Below are positions 9,023-51,261 of a stretch of 64,000 nt of DNA, piece after piece. The translations under genes were made by a program, and so were the position numbers. The notes below the pieces were generated by a model. The model saw only the letters and a program-made list of their open reading frames with translations. It was not told the DNA's origin and did no database searches. Position 1 is the first letter of the stretch. Each line of letters starts with the position of its first letter. The stretch is from an uncultured Pseudomonadales bacterium (GTDB taxonomy: Bacteria > Patescibacteriota > Microgenomatia > UBA1400 > PJMF01): positions 226,093-290,092 of the forward strand of contig CAZUHV010000003.1 of assembly GCA_964620965.1 (NCBI GenBank), in the 5' to 3' direction.

Positions 9023-9466
9023 ATGTCTACTAGATCGCTCAATAAAGTTATGTTAATTGGTAATTTAACCAGAGACCCAGCGCTCAGGTTTACACCAAAT
9101 AATACTGCAGTTTGTTCTTTTAGTATCGCAACAAACCGTTCATGGATTAATAACGATACAAACGAAAAGCAAGAGCAGGTTGAGTTTCATAACATTGTTG
9201 CATGGTCAAAGTTGGCTGAAATTTGTGGATCAATGCTTCACAAAGGCGACAAAGTATATGTCGAAGGTCGTCTCCAAACCAGAAAATGGGAAGGTGAAGA
9301 CAAAGTCGAGCGTAGAACCACAGAAATAGTAATTGAGAACATGATTCTGATTAAATCCGTCTCAGACGCTGTTACAGATGATGATGACGACAATCTTAAA
9401 GATGTCAAAGCTCCAGAAGAGGATACCTTTGATGCTGAAGATGTTTCAGATGATGTTCCATTTTAG
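9023..9466 (+). CDS. ssb: Single-stranded DNA-binding protein
   Basis: OB-fold N-terminus (KVMLIGNLTRDPALRFTPNNTAVCSFSIATNRSW) and acidic C-terminal tail ending DDVPF. Confidence 0.9.
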   Translation: MSTRSLNKVMLIGNLTRDPALRFTPNNTAVCSFSIATNRSWINNDTNEKQEQVEFHNIVAWSKLAEICGSMLHKGDKVYVEGRLQTRKWEGEDKVERRTTEIVIENMILIKSVSDAVTDDDDDNLKDVKAPEEDTFDAEDVSDDVPF

Positions 9467-45609: not shown

Positions 45610-45934
45610 GGTTTTCTTTATTTTCTAATATAGCTTCTTCTGTAGGCTAAAACTTATTGTTTTTGAAAGTTTTTATCAGGAGAAGAGAATAGTAAGCCTG
45701 GTAGGGCCTAATAACATCCTATAATATGTGAGGAGTAGACAGGGGTAGTTTAGCCTGTTTGCTCCTGGAAAAGCATAGTGGAATTAAAAGTTGTAAATCT
45801 TGAGGATCTTCAGTATGGTCTTGAAATATTTTATATTTAAATAAAATTTACACGATAAAACAAGAATTTTTAAAGAAAAACTAGAGAAGAGGGGTCAAAA
45901 ATTTTTTATATGTACCAGGCGGAGAAGGGAGAAG

Positions 45935-45974
45935 TGATATAGTTTGATACAGTATAAATGATATAGTTTGATAT
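45935..45974 (+). repeat. Iteron-like direct repeat: TGATATAGTTTGATA(C/T) twice, with 24-bp spacing
   Basis: 16-nt copies at 45935-45950 and 45959-45974 inside the non-coding part of the accessory segment. A perfect DnaA box (TGTGGATAA = TTATCCACA on the complement) lies 22 bp downstream at 45996-46004. Confidence 0.5.
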
Positions 45975-46939
45975 AGAGTAGAGGCCTATAATAAATGTGG
46001 ATAACTTTAAACTTATAGGACTTATTTATTAAACATTTAGCCTGGTATAAAGGGCGAGAAATGTATTTTTTGTTTTAAGCTTTCAGGAATATGCAAGAAT
46101 AATTTTGAGCCTCAAGCCTGGTGGTGGAGAGTGTTCTGTTTCAGACATATATGCCTGGAATTTTTTATTTCTAGGTGTGTCGTGAAAAGAGTGTGAAAAA
46201 GAATAAAACCCGAATGTGTTTTTCGGCATATTGAGTAAAAAAAGTCATTTTTGCGAGAGACCCAAGAGAGGTAATTTTGCCAGAGTACACAGAGAGCTAA
46301 AAGGGACGAGCACTACTGTTCTTAGTACAGTGATGTACCATGTATTTCAAAAATGCAATGAGCCACAACCGTCTCATTCTCTCTTTGTGAGTGGGGTATG
46401 ATTTTTCGATTTGCATTATGTCGCACAATATTACTTTTACGACGTAAACTAAAATTTTAAGATTGGAGTAGTTTTAGCAGTTCTTTTATTATTTCTCTAT
46501 ATATCCGGGCAATTTTTAGTATTTATTTATTTTTATTCTTTTTTTATCTTTTTAATTCTCTGTTTGCTTGTCTCTCATATAATTTATTTTTTTGCGATTT
46601 TCACTATTATCGTTTTCTTAAATTTTGGAAACTTTATGATTTTTTCTTGTGAGTTTGTCAATCTATTTATTAACTATGTTTTGATTGCATTTGAGGCTAT
46701 TTGAGCCTCTTAAAACCGGTTTTTTAATGAATACTAAGCCGTTTGTACAATAAAAAGCCGTTTTTGAGCCTCTGACATGTTTTAGCCTGGTAGACTTGTT
46801 AATTTTGGTGATTTTGGCGTTAAAATGAGTATTTTTAAACGGTTTTAGTAAAATTTCTTTCAATGTGTAGTAAAAAATGCTTTCTAACTATTTTTTTGTG
46901 GTACAATCCTTTAAAACTTTTAAAAAAGGAGTTTTTGAT

Positions 46940-47389
46940 ATGCAACTGACACATAGTTTAGAAACTGGCGAAAAAAGAAATTTTAACGAGGTGCGAACTT
47001 GTGAACGAAGAAATCTTTTGGCAAGAAGGCTTGATAAGCAATCAGGAAGATTCAAGCGTATGTGGGCTTTGCATAAGGAGCATTTAAGGCTTAGAAATAT
47101 AAATGAAGCTCAGGAACAAAAGGAATTAGTTTTCGATTCTTTATATGAATTTTTAATTCAGGTTTATGACGCTGGTTTATTGATTTATCCAGAAGTAAAT
47201 ATGGAGTTTGCGGACAACTTTACTGAAGATCTCTTCGCCTGGTTTGCACTCACTTTAGGTTTAATTGAGCAGGATGAAATTGCAGAGATGGCTGGGTATA
47301 TTACTCGAAAAATTGAGGAAACTATTCCAGGCAATCTTGTTGTTGCGGATTTAGGGTTATCTTCTACAACCATTGTAAATTTGAATTAA
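46940..47389 (+). CDS. Hypothetical protein (150 aa) with a basic N-terminus and acidic C-terminal half, island-encoded
   Basis: AGGAG SD 8 nt upstream of the ATG at 46940. No recognisable domain. Confidence 0.5.
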   Translation: MQLTHSLETGEKRNFNEVRTCERRNLLARRLDKQSGRFKRMWALHKEHLRLRNINEAQEQKELVFDSLYEFLIQVYDAGLLIYPEVNMEFADNFTEDLFAWFALTLGLIEQDEIAEMAGYITRKIEETIPGNLVVADLGLSSTTIVNLN

Positions 47390-47601
47390 CTTTTAACTAG
47401 ACTTTTTTGTGTCGCAAAATAATTTTACATTTTCCTCCAAAAAGCTTTAAAGGTTGTTTTTTTCTGTAATTAATTGGAGCCTTGATTTTAGGACTCTTAC
47501 TTAAGGACTCCCCTCTTATACTGCTGGGGGAGAGATCAAGTAAAATTTAGAATTCATTATATTTATGAAAAATCTATCTGAAAGAGTAAGGTCTTCTATA
47601 G

Positions 47602-47934
47602 TTATAGCTCCTGAAGTTTCGAAAGATATTTTTCAACAAGTTCCTCAAAGATCGCTTTGAAAGTTTTTTGGAAGGAACTCCCCTCCTTTGATAAAAGTGA
47701 GTTTATTTTAGTATTGAATGTTTCAAGATCTGTTTCTGACTCGATATTCTGAATTTCTGCAGGAATATCCTCAGATTTGAATTGTTCTTCCATGTTTTCC
47801 GGCTTGGTAATTTCTAAAGCTTGCATTAAGGCGGATGAAATGAGCATAGATAATCCTAGTTGGATGTCTTTTTGGTCAATACCTTTTTCTGTTGCTATTT
47901 CTTGTATACTAGTGAGGTTTTGTTGAATGTTCAT
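47602..47934 (-). CDS. Small acidic helical hypothetical protein (110 aa), second gene of a two-gene minus-strand cassette
   Basis: Follows the upstream gene after a 7-nt gap, which fits an operon. Highly acidic and predicted alpha-helical. Confidence 0.5.
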   Translation of the reverse strand: MNIQQNLTSIQEIATEKGIDQKDIQLGLSMLISSALMQALEITKPENMEEQFKSEDIPAEIQNIESETDLETFNTKINSLLSKEGSSFQKTFKAIFEELVEKYLSKLQEL

Positions 47935-47941
47935 AGGTTTT

Positions 47942-48394
47942 TTAATTAATATTTGTTACCTGATTTATTAGATGTGGAATAAAGCTGGCTCCCATTGAAT
48001 GACCCATCATAACGATTTGATAGGTTGCATACCATAATGCTGCTCTAGCTACGTACCTTGTTTTATCATGGTTCTTAAAGAATATTCCAGGAAGTACCCA
48101 TCCTGCTGCCGCGCCAAAAATTCCAATGAGTCCTGGTAGTCCCCAAATTTCTATATTGTGCAGTAGCTCTCTTAATTTTTCACCAAGAGTTCCAATGTCT
48201 ACTCCAGGAATTGGTTCACCAAGCTTATTAATTTGGTTAAACATTCCTGCTAAAAACATTGCACTGAGTTGCTTTGAATGATGTTCTGGTAAGACATCTA
48301 GAGCTGCTTGAACAGCCGCAGGAATGTTTGCTTCAACCTCTAAGTTATCAGTTGTTTCATTTAAATTTGTTAGGTCTGTAAATTCTCTATTCAT
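47942..48394 (-). CDS. Hypothetical protein (150 aa) with a glycine-zipper-like membrane segment (GLPGLIGIFGAAAGWVLPGIFF)
   Basis: Soluble N-terminal region, then a GxxxG-rich hydrophobic helix, then a Trp/Tyr/His/Met-rich C-terminus. First gene of the cassette. Confidence 0.5.
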   Translation of the reverse strand: MNREFTDLTNLNETTDNLEVEANIPAAVQAALDVLPEHHSKQLSAMFLAGMFNQINKLGEPIPGVDIGTLGEKLRELLHNIEIWGLPGLIGIFGAAAGWVLPGIFFKNHDKTRYVARAALWYATYQIVMMGHSMGASFIPHLINQVTNIN

Positions 48395-48775
48395 GTTTTC
48401 AGTGTATCACATTTTTACAAATTTTATTTTATGTCGCAAAAAAATAATGTATTTGCTATACTGCTTCTTAGTAATTGATTTTTTGTTCCTTAAAAATACT
48501 TTGAAGTAGAAGCAGAGTTTGAAACTATAGTTGCATAGCGCTCTACTCTATTCTTATAAAAAATAAAGTTGCTTAAAGATTTTGTAAAGTCCTTTTTTTA
48601 AAATAAATATATACTAAGTATATCAAAGTATATCTAAATATATATAATAAAAAGCATTGATTTAGCAACATTTATTGTTTTAAACACAAATTAGCAGTAT
48701 TTACTATTGTCTGCTAAAAACTCATAGTATTTTGTCATATAAAAAATCATATAGTCGAGGTGAAATATATACTTT

Positions 48776-49711
48776 ATGGCACTTTCAACAAATCCTCACA
48801 AGGCTTTATTGACTTTTGTAGAACATTTAGAAGTTGAGCGTAATGTAAGCCGTTTAACAATTCGAAATTACTCTCATTATTTGAGACGTTTTAACGATTG
48901 GTTTTTAAATGAAGGTCACAAAGATTTAAAAGAATTGGACCAAGATATTGTAAGAAGTTATCGTGTATATTTGTCACGATTTGTTGATGATGTTGGAAGA
49001 ACTTTGTCAAAAAAAACTCAAAGTTATTACATCATTGCGCTTCGTTCTTTGCTCAAATTTATGGTAAAAAATGATGCTCCAGTTTTGCATCCAGAAAAAA
49101 TTGATTTGCCAAAAGCAGAATCTCAACACATGAAATTTTTGAATTTGGAACGTATTGAAAGACTCCTCAATCAGCCGCTACTTTCACAAAAAGGTGGGCT
49201 TCGTGATAAAGCAATTTTGGAAGTTTTATTTTCGACAGGCTTGCGTGTCAGTGAATTAGTTGGATTGAATCGTGATCAAATCGATATTGAAAAACGCGAG
49301 TTTGGAGTGATTGGTAAAGGTCGTAGACCACGTGTAGTTTTTCTGAGTGAACGTGCTGCATATTGGTTAGATAAGTATATGAACTCTCGTTCTGATAATT
49401 GGGACCCTGTGTTTATTAGATATTCTGGAACCAAGCCGGAGCTTTTGGCCGATGGTGAAGAGATGCGTTTAACTACTAGAAGTGTGCAACGCTTGGTAGA
49501 CAAGTATTGTAGAAAAGCAAAATTGCCAATCAAGATTAGCCCTCATGGTATTAGACATAGTTTTGCCACTGATTTATTGAGTAATGGAGCTTCGCTAAGA
49601 GATGTTCAAGAGATGTTGGGACACAAAAATATTGCTACAACGCAGATTTACACCCATGTCACCAGGCCAGAATTAAGAAAATCTCACGAAAAACACCATT
49701 CTGGGTTATAG
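48776..49711 (+). CDS. Tyrosine site-specific recombinase (XerC/XerD / phage-integrase family)
   Basis: N-terminal core-binding (SAM-like) domain and a C-terminal catalytic domain with R...HxxR...Y (GLRVSEL; HGIRHSFATDLL; TTQIYTHV). GAGGTGA SD upstream. Confidence 0.85.
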   Translation: MALSTNPHKALLTFVEHLEVERNVSRLTIRNYSHYLRRFNDWFLNEGHKDLKELDQDIVRSYRVYLSRFVDDVGRTLSKKTQSYYIIALRSLLKFMVKNDAPVLHPEKIDLPKAESQHMKFLNLERIERLLNQPLLSQKGGLRDKAILEVLFSTGLRVSELVGLNRDQIDIEKREFGVIGKGRRPRVVFLSERAAYWLDKYMNSRSDNWDPVFIRYSGTKPELLADGEEMRLTTRSVQRLVDKYCRKAKLPIKISPHGIRHSFATDLLSNGASLRDVQEMLGHKNIATTQIYTHVTRPELRKSHEKHHSGL

Positions 49712-50076: not shown

Positions 50077-50196
50077 TTAGTTACCAGCTTGTGCGAGGAC
50101 TTGTGCTACAGCTATACCAAGAGGTATAACCACAACAACAACTACGACCAGGCAAACAAACATGGCAACTGCAGCTTTGGCTATAAAAGTACCCAT
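50077..50196 (-). CDS. 39-aa ultra-hydrophobic single-TM peptide (MGTFIAKAAVAMFVCLVVVVVVVIPLGIAVAQVLAQAGN), a candidate small membrane toxin or small membrane protein
   Basis: Strong AAGGTGA SD 5 nt upstream of the ATG. Not in the ORF track because it is below the 60-aa threshold. Followed on the minus strand by the GC hairpin. Confidence 0.45.
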   Translation of the reverse strand: MGTFIAKAAVAMFVCLVVVVVVVIPLGIAVAQVLAQAGN

Positions 50197-50484
50197 TGCA
50201 ATCACCTTTTTTTTGAATTTCTCCAAGAATTACGCTTTCGCCACTCGGAGTGAAGTTATCTCTATTTGATATTCGGATCGCGTAGACCCGACATCCTCAT
50301 AGAGATGCTCAAAAAACCAGACTTTAGTTTCTTAAGGATCTCTATGCAAGAAGCTCTGTTAATGTGCAATTAAAACTACTTTATCAGTAATTATGAGACA
50401 TATCAATAGTTTTTTGCTTAAATGTGGGTCTCTCCTCGTTGTGTTTTTGAGGCAACTTGGGTAACATATGCAGTATACAGAAAT

Positions 50485-50558
50485 GGGCCTGTAGCGCAGC
50501 TGGTTAGCGCGTTTGTATGGCATACAAAAGGTCAGGGGTTCGAATCCCCTCAGGTCCA
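50485..50558 (+). tRNA. tRNA-Ala (anticodon GGC)
   Basis: Hand-folded cloverleaf: acceptor GGGCCTG/CAGGTCC with the G3:U70 pair characteristic of tRNA-Ala, D-arm GCGC-AGCTGGTTA-GCGC, anticodon stem TTTGT/ACAAA with loop ATGGCAT (GGC), T-arm AGGGG-TTCGAAT-CCCCT and discriminator A. Confidence 0.85.
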
Positions 50559-50705
50559 CAAAAATTTTTTGATATAAAATACTTGAATTTCTTCAAAAGT
50601 CTTTTGATTACTCTTGCGTTTTCTTTGAGGTTTACTCTTTGATAAGAGTGGCTTATGTGGACTTGTTTGTTATTTATTGCAAAAAAAGGTATTTAAATGG
50701 CAAAA

Positions 50706-50760: not shown

Positions 50761-51000
50761 CTAATAACGTCCTGTCCTGCTACGCAGGAACAGAAATATT
50801 CCAATAAAAATGATTCCACAGACTGCTATACCGATTTTCTCCAGTATATTCAGAGTGGGAACTGTTAAAAATCCGCAAATTCCCAACATAATTCCTAATA
50901 GGATTATGGCGAACATATTTCGCATTCTGACTACAGCCCAAGAATTCACGGTTGTGCCACTACTGTGGCTTGCCATTTGTCGACCTTGTGAGTCTTTCAT
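50761..51000 (-). CDS. Small two-TM membrane protein, hypothetical
   Basis: AAGGGTGA SD 6 nt upstream of the internal ATG (MKDSQGRQ...). Two hydrophobic helices. Confidence 0.45.
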   Translation of the reverse strand: MKDSQGRQMASHSSGTTVNSWAVVRMRNMFAIILLGIMLGICGFLTVPTLNILEKIGIAVCGIIFIGIFLFLRSRTGRY

Positions 51001-51261
51001 TTTTTCACCCTTATAATTAGATATAGATTTTGTTGACAAAATTCCCCAAGAGGGGGTGAATAATCAAATTAGCTGATCTAATGGGCATGGGAAAAGTCGC
51101 GTTGACTTTCTTATCCCTCTAGGGCCTTTTTAATTATTCGCTACTCCTGGAGATCTGTTCAATTTTTAATGTGCTTTGCATTCTTTCAAATGTAACTAAA
51201 TTATCCTATAATATGATAATTTTGTCAATGATTAAAAGGCTAAATCGTAGTAATATCATAG

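Follow-up and report, generated by a model that had tools for sequence, protein, structure and literature searches.

An orphan gene pair with matched divergent alleles beside a dif-like site and the xer gene of a Patescibacteria genome

Polymorphic two-gene systems with cognate partners include bacteriocins or contact-dependent toxins with their immunity proteins, type II toxin-antitoxin systems and the agr/com specificity groups. Among the Xer site-specific recombination systems, linkage of dif to the recombinase gene is a hallmark of those with a single recombinase, and the attachment sites of integrative mobile elements exploiting Xer (IMEX) keep one arm and the centre while the second arm is degenerate (PMC5357621). 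Here we describe a locus that can be compared with both kinds of system. It lies in a stretch of 64,000 nucleotides (positions 226,093 to 290,092 of contig CAZUHV010000003.1), referred to below as the window, and consists of two short genes, designated p1 and p2, situated between a 28-nt Xer-type site and the gene of a Xer-family tyrosine recombinase (xer). The pair exists in at least four alleles in which p1 and p2 are matched to each other, and in the window it is part of a segment bounded by two copies of one arm of the 28-nt site (Table 1). The Patescibacteria (candidate phyla radiation, CPR), to which the genome belongs, have tiny genomes, and very little is known about their mobile DNA, chromosome-dimer resolution and cell-conflict systems. 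Architectures like those of dif modules or IMEX and polymorphic cognate pairs are both known kinds of system; neither is described for this phylum in the literature searched.

The two minus-strand open reading frames (ORFs) which the initial annotation had reported are both present. They are separated by 7 nt between the p1 stop codon and the p2 ATG; the corresponding gap measures 8 nt in strain L008 and 5-6 nt in strains L093 and L097. The p1 protein begins with a conserved soluble N-terminal domain (residues ~1-80), followed at residues ~83-107 by a single clear transmembrane segment, which is hydrophobic and glycine-rich (Kyte-Doolittle 19-mer maximum 1.82). Behind this segment come a basic K/R-rich stretch (KNHDKTRYVAR), a second stretch at residues 114-131 which is weakly hydrophobic and amphipathic, and a C-terminal part rich in aromatic residues. 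Hydropathy analysis revealed no N-terminal hydrophobic signal segment in the p1 alleles. The description of p1 as a glycine-zipper protein is partly apt: the glycine-rich transmembrane segment is there and one GxxxG motif (G94-G98) is conserved in allele B, but it is the only one kept in that allele, and in the C and D sequences a GxxxG motif was seen by eye at a different position. The portrayal of p2 as acidic and helical held up. Its isoelectric point (pI) is 4.38, it contains 20 acidic (D+E) and 10 basic (K+R) residues, and the AlphaFold2 model comprises six helices with a mean predicted local distance difference test score (pLDDT) of 83.7. Neither a signal peptide nor a transmembrane segment was found in p2 by sequence and hydropathy analysis, and p2 and the N-terminal domain of p1 showed no relatedness to each other.

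Table 1. Features of the p1/p2 locus in the 64-kb window, and carriers of the four alleles
Feature	Position or carriers	Strand	Description
28-nt Xer-type core site, ATGTCGCACAA-TATTAC-TTTTACGACGT	46418..46445	+	two 11-nt imperfect inverted arms, 6-nt centre
170-aa orphan helical protein (ORF)	46877..47389	+	between 28-nt site and arm copy B; in L011 and L012, not in L008
Arm copy B, GTGTCGCAAAA	47409..47419	+	19 nt past stop codon of 170-aa gene; left boundary of insertion
3' non-coding part of module	47420..47601	-	CTCCCC...GGGGAG hairpin at ~47505-47531; conserved among alleles A, C and D; species-specific
p2	47602..47934	-	110 aa, acidic (pI 4.4), all-helical, soluble; basis: ORF, AlphaFold2 model, alleles, dN/dS (omega) 0.13-0.21
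p1	47942..48394	-	150-aa membrane protein; basis: ORF, hydropathy, homologous alleles B, C and D, omega 0.25-0.33
Putative p1-p2 promoter	48411..48439	-	TTGCGA, 16-17 nt spacer, TAAAAAT; ~16 nt upstream of p1 ATG; predicted from sequence
Arm copy C, ATGTCGCAAAA	48431..48441	+	right boundary of insertion; positional counterpart of single dif-like site of L011/L012
Xer-family tyrosine recombinase (xer)	48776..49711	+	311 aa, divergent from pair; conserved locus anchor; basis: Pfam, NCBIfam
Allele A	window, L001-L006, L095		p1 + p2 = 150 + 110 aa
Allele B	L007-L010 (another species)		p1 + p2 = 144 + 110 aa
Allele C	L093, L100		p1 + p2 = 165 + 109 aa
Allele D	L096-L098		p1 + p2 = 171 + 109 aa

Additional strains were found by looking up variants of the neighbouring 170-aa protein and of Xer, and their comparison revealed the polymorphism of the pair. 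Alleles A and B are 43% identical in p1 and 68% in p2, alleles C and D 65% and 66%, while between the A/B and the C/D clade both proteins share 31-40% identity. The trees of p1 and p2 are congruent: in both, A pairs with B and C with D. This divergence contrasts with the surroundings. Strains with alleles C and D have identical Xer proteins, xer of the window and of L097 differ by a dN of 0.001 and a dS of 0.21, and the 170-aa genes of A, C and D strains are 87-93% identical. At the nucleotide level the flanks of A, C and D strains are 96-100% identical, and identity drops to 40-60% only between the p2 stop codon and the p1 ATG. Between alleles dS is ~1.0-1.6, compared with 0.17-0.21 in flanking genes. 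In other words, matched p1/p2 types have by far outlasted their flanks, and A, C and D occur within one species-level group. Every allele keeps the N-terminal domain, the glycine-rich transmembrane segment, the second hydrophobic stretch and an acidic p2. Invariant residues of p1 cluster in the N-terminal domain; the membrane and C-terminal half is variable. We hold the accessory pair, its architecture and its polymorphism to be very probably as described.

Some finer details of the alleles were also noted. At its 5' end, p1 of allele D (MNREFTDQTNV...; L097:3500-3619, corresponding to 48275-48394 of the window) resembles p1 of A and not p1 of C (MNEISTHLKTD...), although C is the closer relative, which points to recombination breakpoints inside p1. 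The 3' ends of p1 and p2 are far less diverged between C and D (pS 0.10-0.21). Swapping of whole modules at arms B and C was ruled out as the source of the alleles, as A, C and D strains have in common all three arm copies as well as the 3' hairpin region and the stretch with the promoter. The promoter stretch is near-identical among them; the -35 of the putative p1-p2 promoter falls within arm copy C, and its score lies under the threshold of the promoter scan.

Other lineages and strains also have p1 and p2 side by side. Between alleles A and B the ratio of nonsynonymous to synonymous substitutions (dN/dS) amounts to 0.33 in p1 and 0.13 in p2; the values between C and D are 0.25 and 0.21, respectively. 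On these grounds p1 and p2 are taken to be genuine genes under purifying selection which are kept as an adjacent pair. The tight coupling as a two-gene unit that had been proposed initially is supported. The sequence data further support the view that p1 and p2 may be co-adapted cognate partners, long kept polymorphic.

No allele of either protein gave a significant match in Pfam, PHROGs, PADLOC, NCBIfam or PDB sequence profiles, and Foldseek searches against PDB and BFVD produced no fold match. Relatives were likewise absent from phage records (tblastn) and from the viral contigs scanned. Two word-indexed searches covered 5.8 billion proteins; they were complemented by an alignment search, by phmmer run exhaustively over 1.84 billion representatives, and by scans of metagenome and genome contigs. 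Together these returned only near-identical copies, a p2 homolog (P0003, 68% identical) and a repeat protein (P0004) which is a chance match. No allele contained a recognisable toxin domain according to Pfam and the other libraries, and the pair possesses no secretion signal, leader peptide or delivery domain. By sequence, then, p1/p2 is an orphan pair without known family, as the initial annotation had stated. Homology to a housekeeping membrane protein, which it had named as a finding that would speak against its interpretation, did not appear in the searches run.

The pair is an accessory two-gene operon. It is missing from the nearest species, L011 and L012, and tblastn and profile searches revealed no p1 or p2 homologs in 80 syntenic loci, including those whose Xer is 94% and 89% identical. 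The neighbouring genes are housekeeping genes, namely those for TGT, QueA, enolase, YebC, gyrA, gyrB, a DHH phosphoesterase, the delta' subunit of Pol III and type IV pilus ATPases. The window also encodes a DUF5656 protein, and its closest relatives are "Patescibacteria group bacterium BroJett025" and metagenome-assembled genomes (MAGs) of Pacebacteria; the genome is of the Pacebacteria/Microgenomates type. An island or prophage was ruled out by the housekeeping neighbours; a tRNA-Ala gene is located downstream of xer and nothing integrase-like beyond it. The genomic island in which the pair had been placed does not therefore exist, and the recombinase gene is a conserved Xer-family gene. Nor was a promoter shared with the recombinase gene found. 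Between xer and gyrA there are two small predicted membrane ORFs of 49 aa (50077-50226, minus strand) and 92 aa (50761-51039, minus strand), which flank the tRNA-Ala gene (50485-50559); similar small hydrophobic ORFs are found at the same position in L011.

The ends of the inserted segment can be read from a comparison with the species lacking it. In L011 and L012 the full 28-nt site is followed by a homolog of the 170-aa gene, 19 nt, a single dif-like site (GTCGCACAATATT...), a spacer and xer. The window has the same 19 nt behind the stop codon of its 170-aa gene, and arm B comes next; at the other end, what lies to the right of arm C aligns with what lies to the right of the dif-like site in L011 and L012. 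Therefore the pair lies within a 1,022-bp segment bounded by a duplicated arm, and the order of elements is 28-nt site, 170-aa gene, arm B, insert (3' hairpin, p2, p1, promoter), arm C and xer. The arm sequence RTGTCGCAMAA has exactly 3 matches in the 64 kb (0.18 expected), all of them on the plus strand (46418, 47409 and 48431). Arms B and C match the arm of the 28-nt site at 9/11 and 10/11 positions, respectively, and arm C is the reverse complement of the right-arm variant TTTTGCGACAT. The non-coding parts of the segment were found in this species only. The third-codon-position GC (GC3) skew of the pair is ~0, compared with +0.25 to +0.37 in its immediate neighbours. Both features are in keeping with an insertion.

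Secondary arm copies are also abundant elsewhere. In 63 loci the interval between site and xer contained 40 of them, compared with 0.68 expected (59-fold), in an orientation ratio of 32:8, and they frequently lie at the ends of cargo genes. The cargo of the interval in other species is heterogeneous: TIM-barrel, GNAT and HAD proteins, a GDSL lipase, an IS200-type transposase and orphans. In five loci (L037:4014-9990, L074:4652-9930, L034:6036-9990, L062:7328-9930 and L071:6942-8470) the interval has grown to 1.5-6 kb; the cargo of such expanded intervals comprises sets of orphan paralogs, a lysyl-oxidase-like protein, a GDSL lipase, an AP_endonuc_2 TIM barrel and an IS200-type Y1 transposase.

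What could be the history and the function of such a pair? The module may have been gained or lost as a unit through recombination between arm copies, probably by the adjacent Xer enzyme, in a manner that can be likened to dif-bounded modules and IMEX elements. We regard such an Xer-mediated origin as plausible, and as evenly balanced between true and false. As to function, p1 would be anchored in the membrane by its glycine-rich helix, and the cytosolic acidic p2 would bind it specifically. Selection might hold matched p1/p2 combinations together and maintain several specificity types. Such a pattern is seen in toxin-immunity or toxin-antidote pairs, in recognition and pherotype loci and in some defence systems. 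Our leading guess, a tentative one, is that p1 acts on the membrane as a toxin which is kept in check by p2 as its cognate antidote or immunity partner, the roles being possibly reversed. The toxin-immunity-like pairing suggested at the outset thus survives in part: a cognate pair fits the co-varying alleles, but there is no homology or fold in its favour. That architecture, polymorphism, Xer-mediated origin and toxin-antidote function should all hold jointly is somewhat more doubtful than probable.

A number of observations weigh against one or other part of this reading. Arms B and C retain one arm each and their centres differ (TAATTT and AAATAA), which leaves them putative recombination sites. 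In L008, which carries allele B, the pair is next to the full site, and both the 170-aa gene and a recognisable arm B are missing. It is the ends of the coding sequences, rather than arms B and C, that form the allele boundaries, so that alleles seem to pass between strains by homologous recombination within the shared flanks and not by site-specific swapping. No switch in replication skew coincides with the 28-nt site, either in the window of this genome or in any of 54 loci. Upstream of xer, arm copies are often found just before a TTGACA -35 box, and the putative -35 of p1 overlaps arm C; judged from these positions the arms could be regulatory operators, which is a live alternative to recombination. 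With regard to the proteins, the AlphaFold2 model of p1 is of low confidence (pLDDT 41), and none of the searches revealed a resemblance of p1 or p2, in sequence or in fold, to families of toxins, antitoxins or immunity proteins or to those of abortive infection or exclusion. An acidic p2 without a DNA-binding domain detectable by Pfam (E<=1), and with a six-helix model lacking a fold match, is atypical of type II antitoxins. Finally, no sliding window with pN > pS, which would point to positive selection, was found in either gene.

Alternatively, p1 and p2 could be an ordinary lineage-specific membrane protein and its soluble partner, with no role in toxicity or conflict. The alleles would then be divergent copies imported now and then from related species by homologous recombination in the flanks, the arms would be operators for Xer or another regulator, and presence or absence of the pair would result from deletion between 11-nt direct repeats. 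The lack of a toxin or immunity signature in any library, omega values below 1 throughout, the allele boundaries at coding-sequence ends and the abutment of arms to promoter boxes in many loci all speak for this explanation, as do the mundane enzymes (TIM barrel, GNAT, HAD, GDSL lipase) which form the cargo of the same interval elsewhere. It is less at ease with the polymorphism. Three alleles with 31-40% identity, set in near-identical flanks and breaking at start and stop codons, would be hard to maintain without selection for matched types, and the pair is dispensable in the closest species. We consider this explanation possible rather than likely, on a par with the toxin-antidote guess.

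A lower probability is given to a two-component anti-phage module, acting by abortive infection or superinfection exclusion, in which p1 would be the membrane effector and p2 its sensor or inhibitor, and the alleles would stem from an arms race with phages. A membrane effector with a small soluble partner is a common architecture of defence systems, and the p1/p2 locus combines accessory status and hypervariability with a position beside a recombination site. On the other hand there were no PADLOC or PHROG matches and no relatives in phage records or viral contigs, defence genes are lacking nearby where the surroundings are housekeeping, and an arms race sits poorly with an omega below 1 and the lack of a positively selected window. 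This alternative appears improbable.

Still less probable is a role of the pair in setting the specificity with which an epibiotic Patescibacteria cell interacts with other cells or a host, for instance in surface recognition or as a signalling pair, with the alleles as recognition types: co-varying long-lived polymorphism is typical of recognition and pherotype loci too, and the positive-inside rule puts the basic stretch of p1 in the cytoplasm, so that the 80-aa N-terminal domain would lie exposed outside the cell, but this presumably exposed domain is the most conserved part of p1 while the membrane and C-terminal half varies, p2 lacks a signal peptide or transmembrane segment, and no homology to adhesin, pilin or signalling families was detected.

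Returning to the toxin-antidote guess and the arm-bounded module, one may extend them to a speculative and rather unlikely generalisation: Microgenomates-type Patescibacteria would possess a clade-wide, Xer-linked cassette platform, made up of the conserved 28-nt dif-like site off the terminus, the xer gene and the variable interval separating them, where small modules are captured, lost and exchanged at one-armed site copies. The p1/p2 module would be one of these cassettes, and would encode a hitherto unknown self/non-self pair of the toxin-immunity type, of which natural populations of these ultra-small and mostly epibiotic bacteria maintain several specificity types.

The 28-nt site itself hardly varies among 64 sources, of which the window and L008 are two; its edges are sharp and its flanks are wholly divergent. 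These sources are Pacebacteria, Woesebacteria, Gottesmanbacteria, Levybacteria and related MAGs (for example L011:8786-8813). In 63 loci the site is located 362-5,959 nt upstream of xer (median 888), and in the window the full site occurs once. Its layout is that of dif (11-6-11), and the asymmetry at position 9/20 is constant. An RNA hairpin was ruled out by pair-state counts: pair 7-22 is a C.A mismatch in 31 of the 64 sites, and the element is therefore a DNA site. A phage attachment site was rejected because the sequence is absent from 2.9 million viral contigs. In the literature searched, a dif site of Patescibacteria is not described.

It might be expected that such a site marks the replication terminus. 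Skew was followed over about 10 kb on either side of the site in each locus; in the window this range extended to 46 kb on the left and 17 kb on the right. The raw skew falls at the site in 44 of 47 loci, and this drop is an effect of gene orientation. In the window the GC3 skew, expressed for the plus strand, is +0.21 to +0.29 left and right of the site, whichever strand the genes are on, and across 54 loci it is positive on both sides without a change of sign. A terminus or origin at the site was thereby excluded, and it follows from the unchanged third-position skew that the DnaA-box-like TGTGGATAA next to the site is no mark of oriC. For the same reason we use the term dif-like Xer-type site and do not call it a proven dif. 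In four loci (L053, L054, L055 and L084) the 28-nt site, at ~9046-9304, is in minus orientation and hence inverted relative to xer, as could have come about by an inversion involving the full site and an arm copy of opposite orientation.

To the left of the site, a region at 45870-46220 contains short motifs which are invariant across species but variably spaced; the same region was recognised in 20-61 loci. The motifs are TGATATAGTTTGATA (sometimes in tandem), TGTGGA[TA]AACT (a DnaA-box match), ACTATAGGAC, CGTGAAA repeats, the mutually complementary ACCAGGCTAAAT and AGCCTGG, ATGCAAGAATAA and AAAACCCGAAT. A structured RNA was dismissed for these blocks in the absence of an Rfam match and a consensus structure. 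The region also contains no long ORF. The region could be one where multiple proteins bind, or a poorly alignable RNA.

The recombinase is 60-94% identical across 80 Patescibacteria species with conserved synteny. Its NCBIfam scores for XerC, XerD and XerA are about equal, with 241 bits for the XerC and XerD models, and all under the equivalog cut-offs; the integron integrase model TIGR02249 gives 108 bits, with a cut-off of 265. A second tyrosine recombinase was not found in the 64-kb window. Judged by sequence and synteny the protein is a vertically inherited Xer-family enzyme and not the integrase of a mobile element. The spacer between p1 and xer measures 381 nt; its pair-proximal part is conserved among the alleles and the ~200 nt next to xer are common to species without the pair. 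In many species an arm copy (ATGTCGCACAAT) directly precedes a TTGACA -35-like box ~100 nt upstream of xer (L056:5502, L066:9892, L067:1686, L072:9873, L087:9907, L089:286 and others). Because arm copies abut this box, the recombinase may regulate its own promoter, and autoregulation is what the arrangement suggests.

The 170-aa ORF on the other side of the pair probably starts at an internal Met at ~46940, since L097 has a 149-aa version. It possesses a conserved core, YDxGLLIY...DNFTxDLFxWFALTLGL, and homologs at L011:9162-9638, L012:47-322 and L097:2154-2603. The window and L003 differ at 68 positions within 46475-47481, compared with about 4 in the preceding 5.4 kb and 1 in the ~1 kb that follows. 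This block begins 30 nt past the 28-nt site and ends just beyond arm B. The 170-aa module thus shows strain mosaicism, too.

How does the locus compare with the systems described so far? With integron cassettes it shares a tyrosine recombinase and adjacent small, variable, mostly orphan modules each with a site-like repeat, and the pair is likewise divergent from the recombinase gene. However, the IntI signature is absent, the repeats are not attC-like imperfect palindromes, the pair apparently has its own putative promoter, predicted from sequence, and the full site is farthest from the recombinase gene. XerS/difSL of streptococci and XerH/difH of Helicobacter are alike in having a near-palindromic conserved site linked to a single Xer gene (PMC5357621). 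In those modules the site adjoins the gene, whereas here it is 0.36-6 kb away from xer with variable cargo in between; moreover, with 311 aa the recombinase resembles XerC/D/A in length and type rather than XerS/H, and there is no skew switch at the site. With chromosomal dif the element has in common a conserved 28-bp site with two arms, but not the location at the terminus.

IMEX (CTX-phi, TLC-phi and the gonococcal genetic island) and the dif modules of Acinetobacter plasmids are, like the p1/p2 segment, gene modules bordered by copies of an Xer-type site; the copies retain a single arm, with or without part of the centre, and their second arm is degenerate. Here too a full 28-nt site is adjacent, and the ends of the presence/absence difference between L011/L012 and the window coincide with site copies, although these have one arm each. 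There are differences as well. Integration at the terminus is not seen, as the full site is not at the replication terminus, and the module of 1 kb carries no phage, resistance or recombination-factor genes. The copies here are 11-nt arms in direct orientation and not complete 28-nt pdif sites in alternating orientation. If our reading is true, there would be a candidate Xer recombination site for an entire class within the CPR, next to xer and off the terminus, which is unusual for bacteria, and one-armed site copies bordering variable modules would extend the IMEX and dif-module idea beyond the Proteobacteria.

The pair itself resembles type II toxin-antitoxin systems in gene adjacency and the short junction, but not in family homology or in a DNA-binding domain of the antitoxin. 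With polymorphic toxin-immunity loci it shares divergent co-varying types in conserved flanks; a toxin domain with a delivery signal is missing. If co-adapted polymorphism is indeed its signature, the four natural allele pairs of this orphan system make a toxin-antidote or recognition function testable, and even if its function is mundane the locus would be useful as a strain marker and recombination hotspot. Compared with polymorphic cognate systems in general, the putative effector is unusual in being a 150-aa bitopic or hairpin membrane protein without family homology. What it shares with them are adjacent and coupled accessory genes, divergent co-varying types within a species, and conserved flanks.

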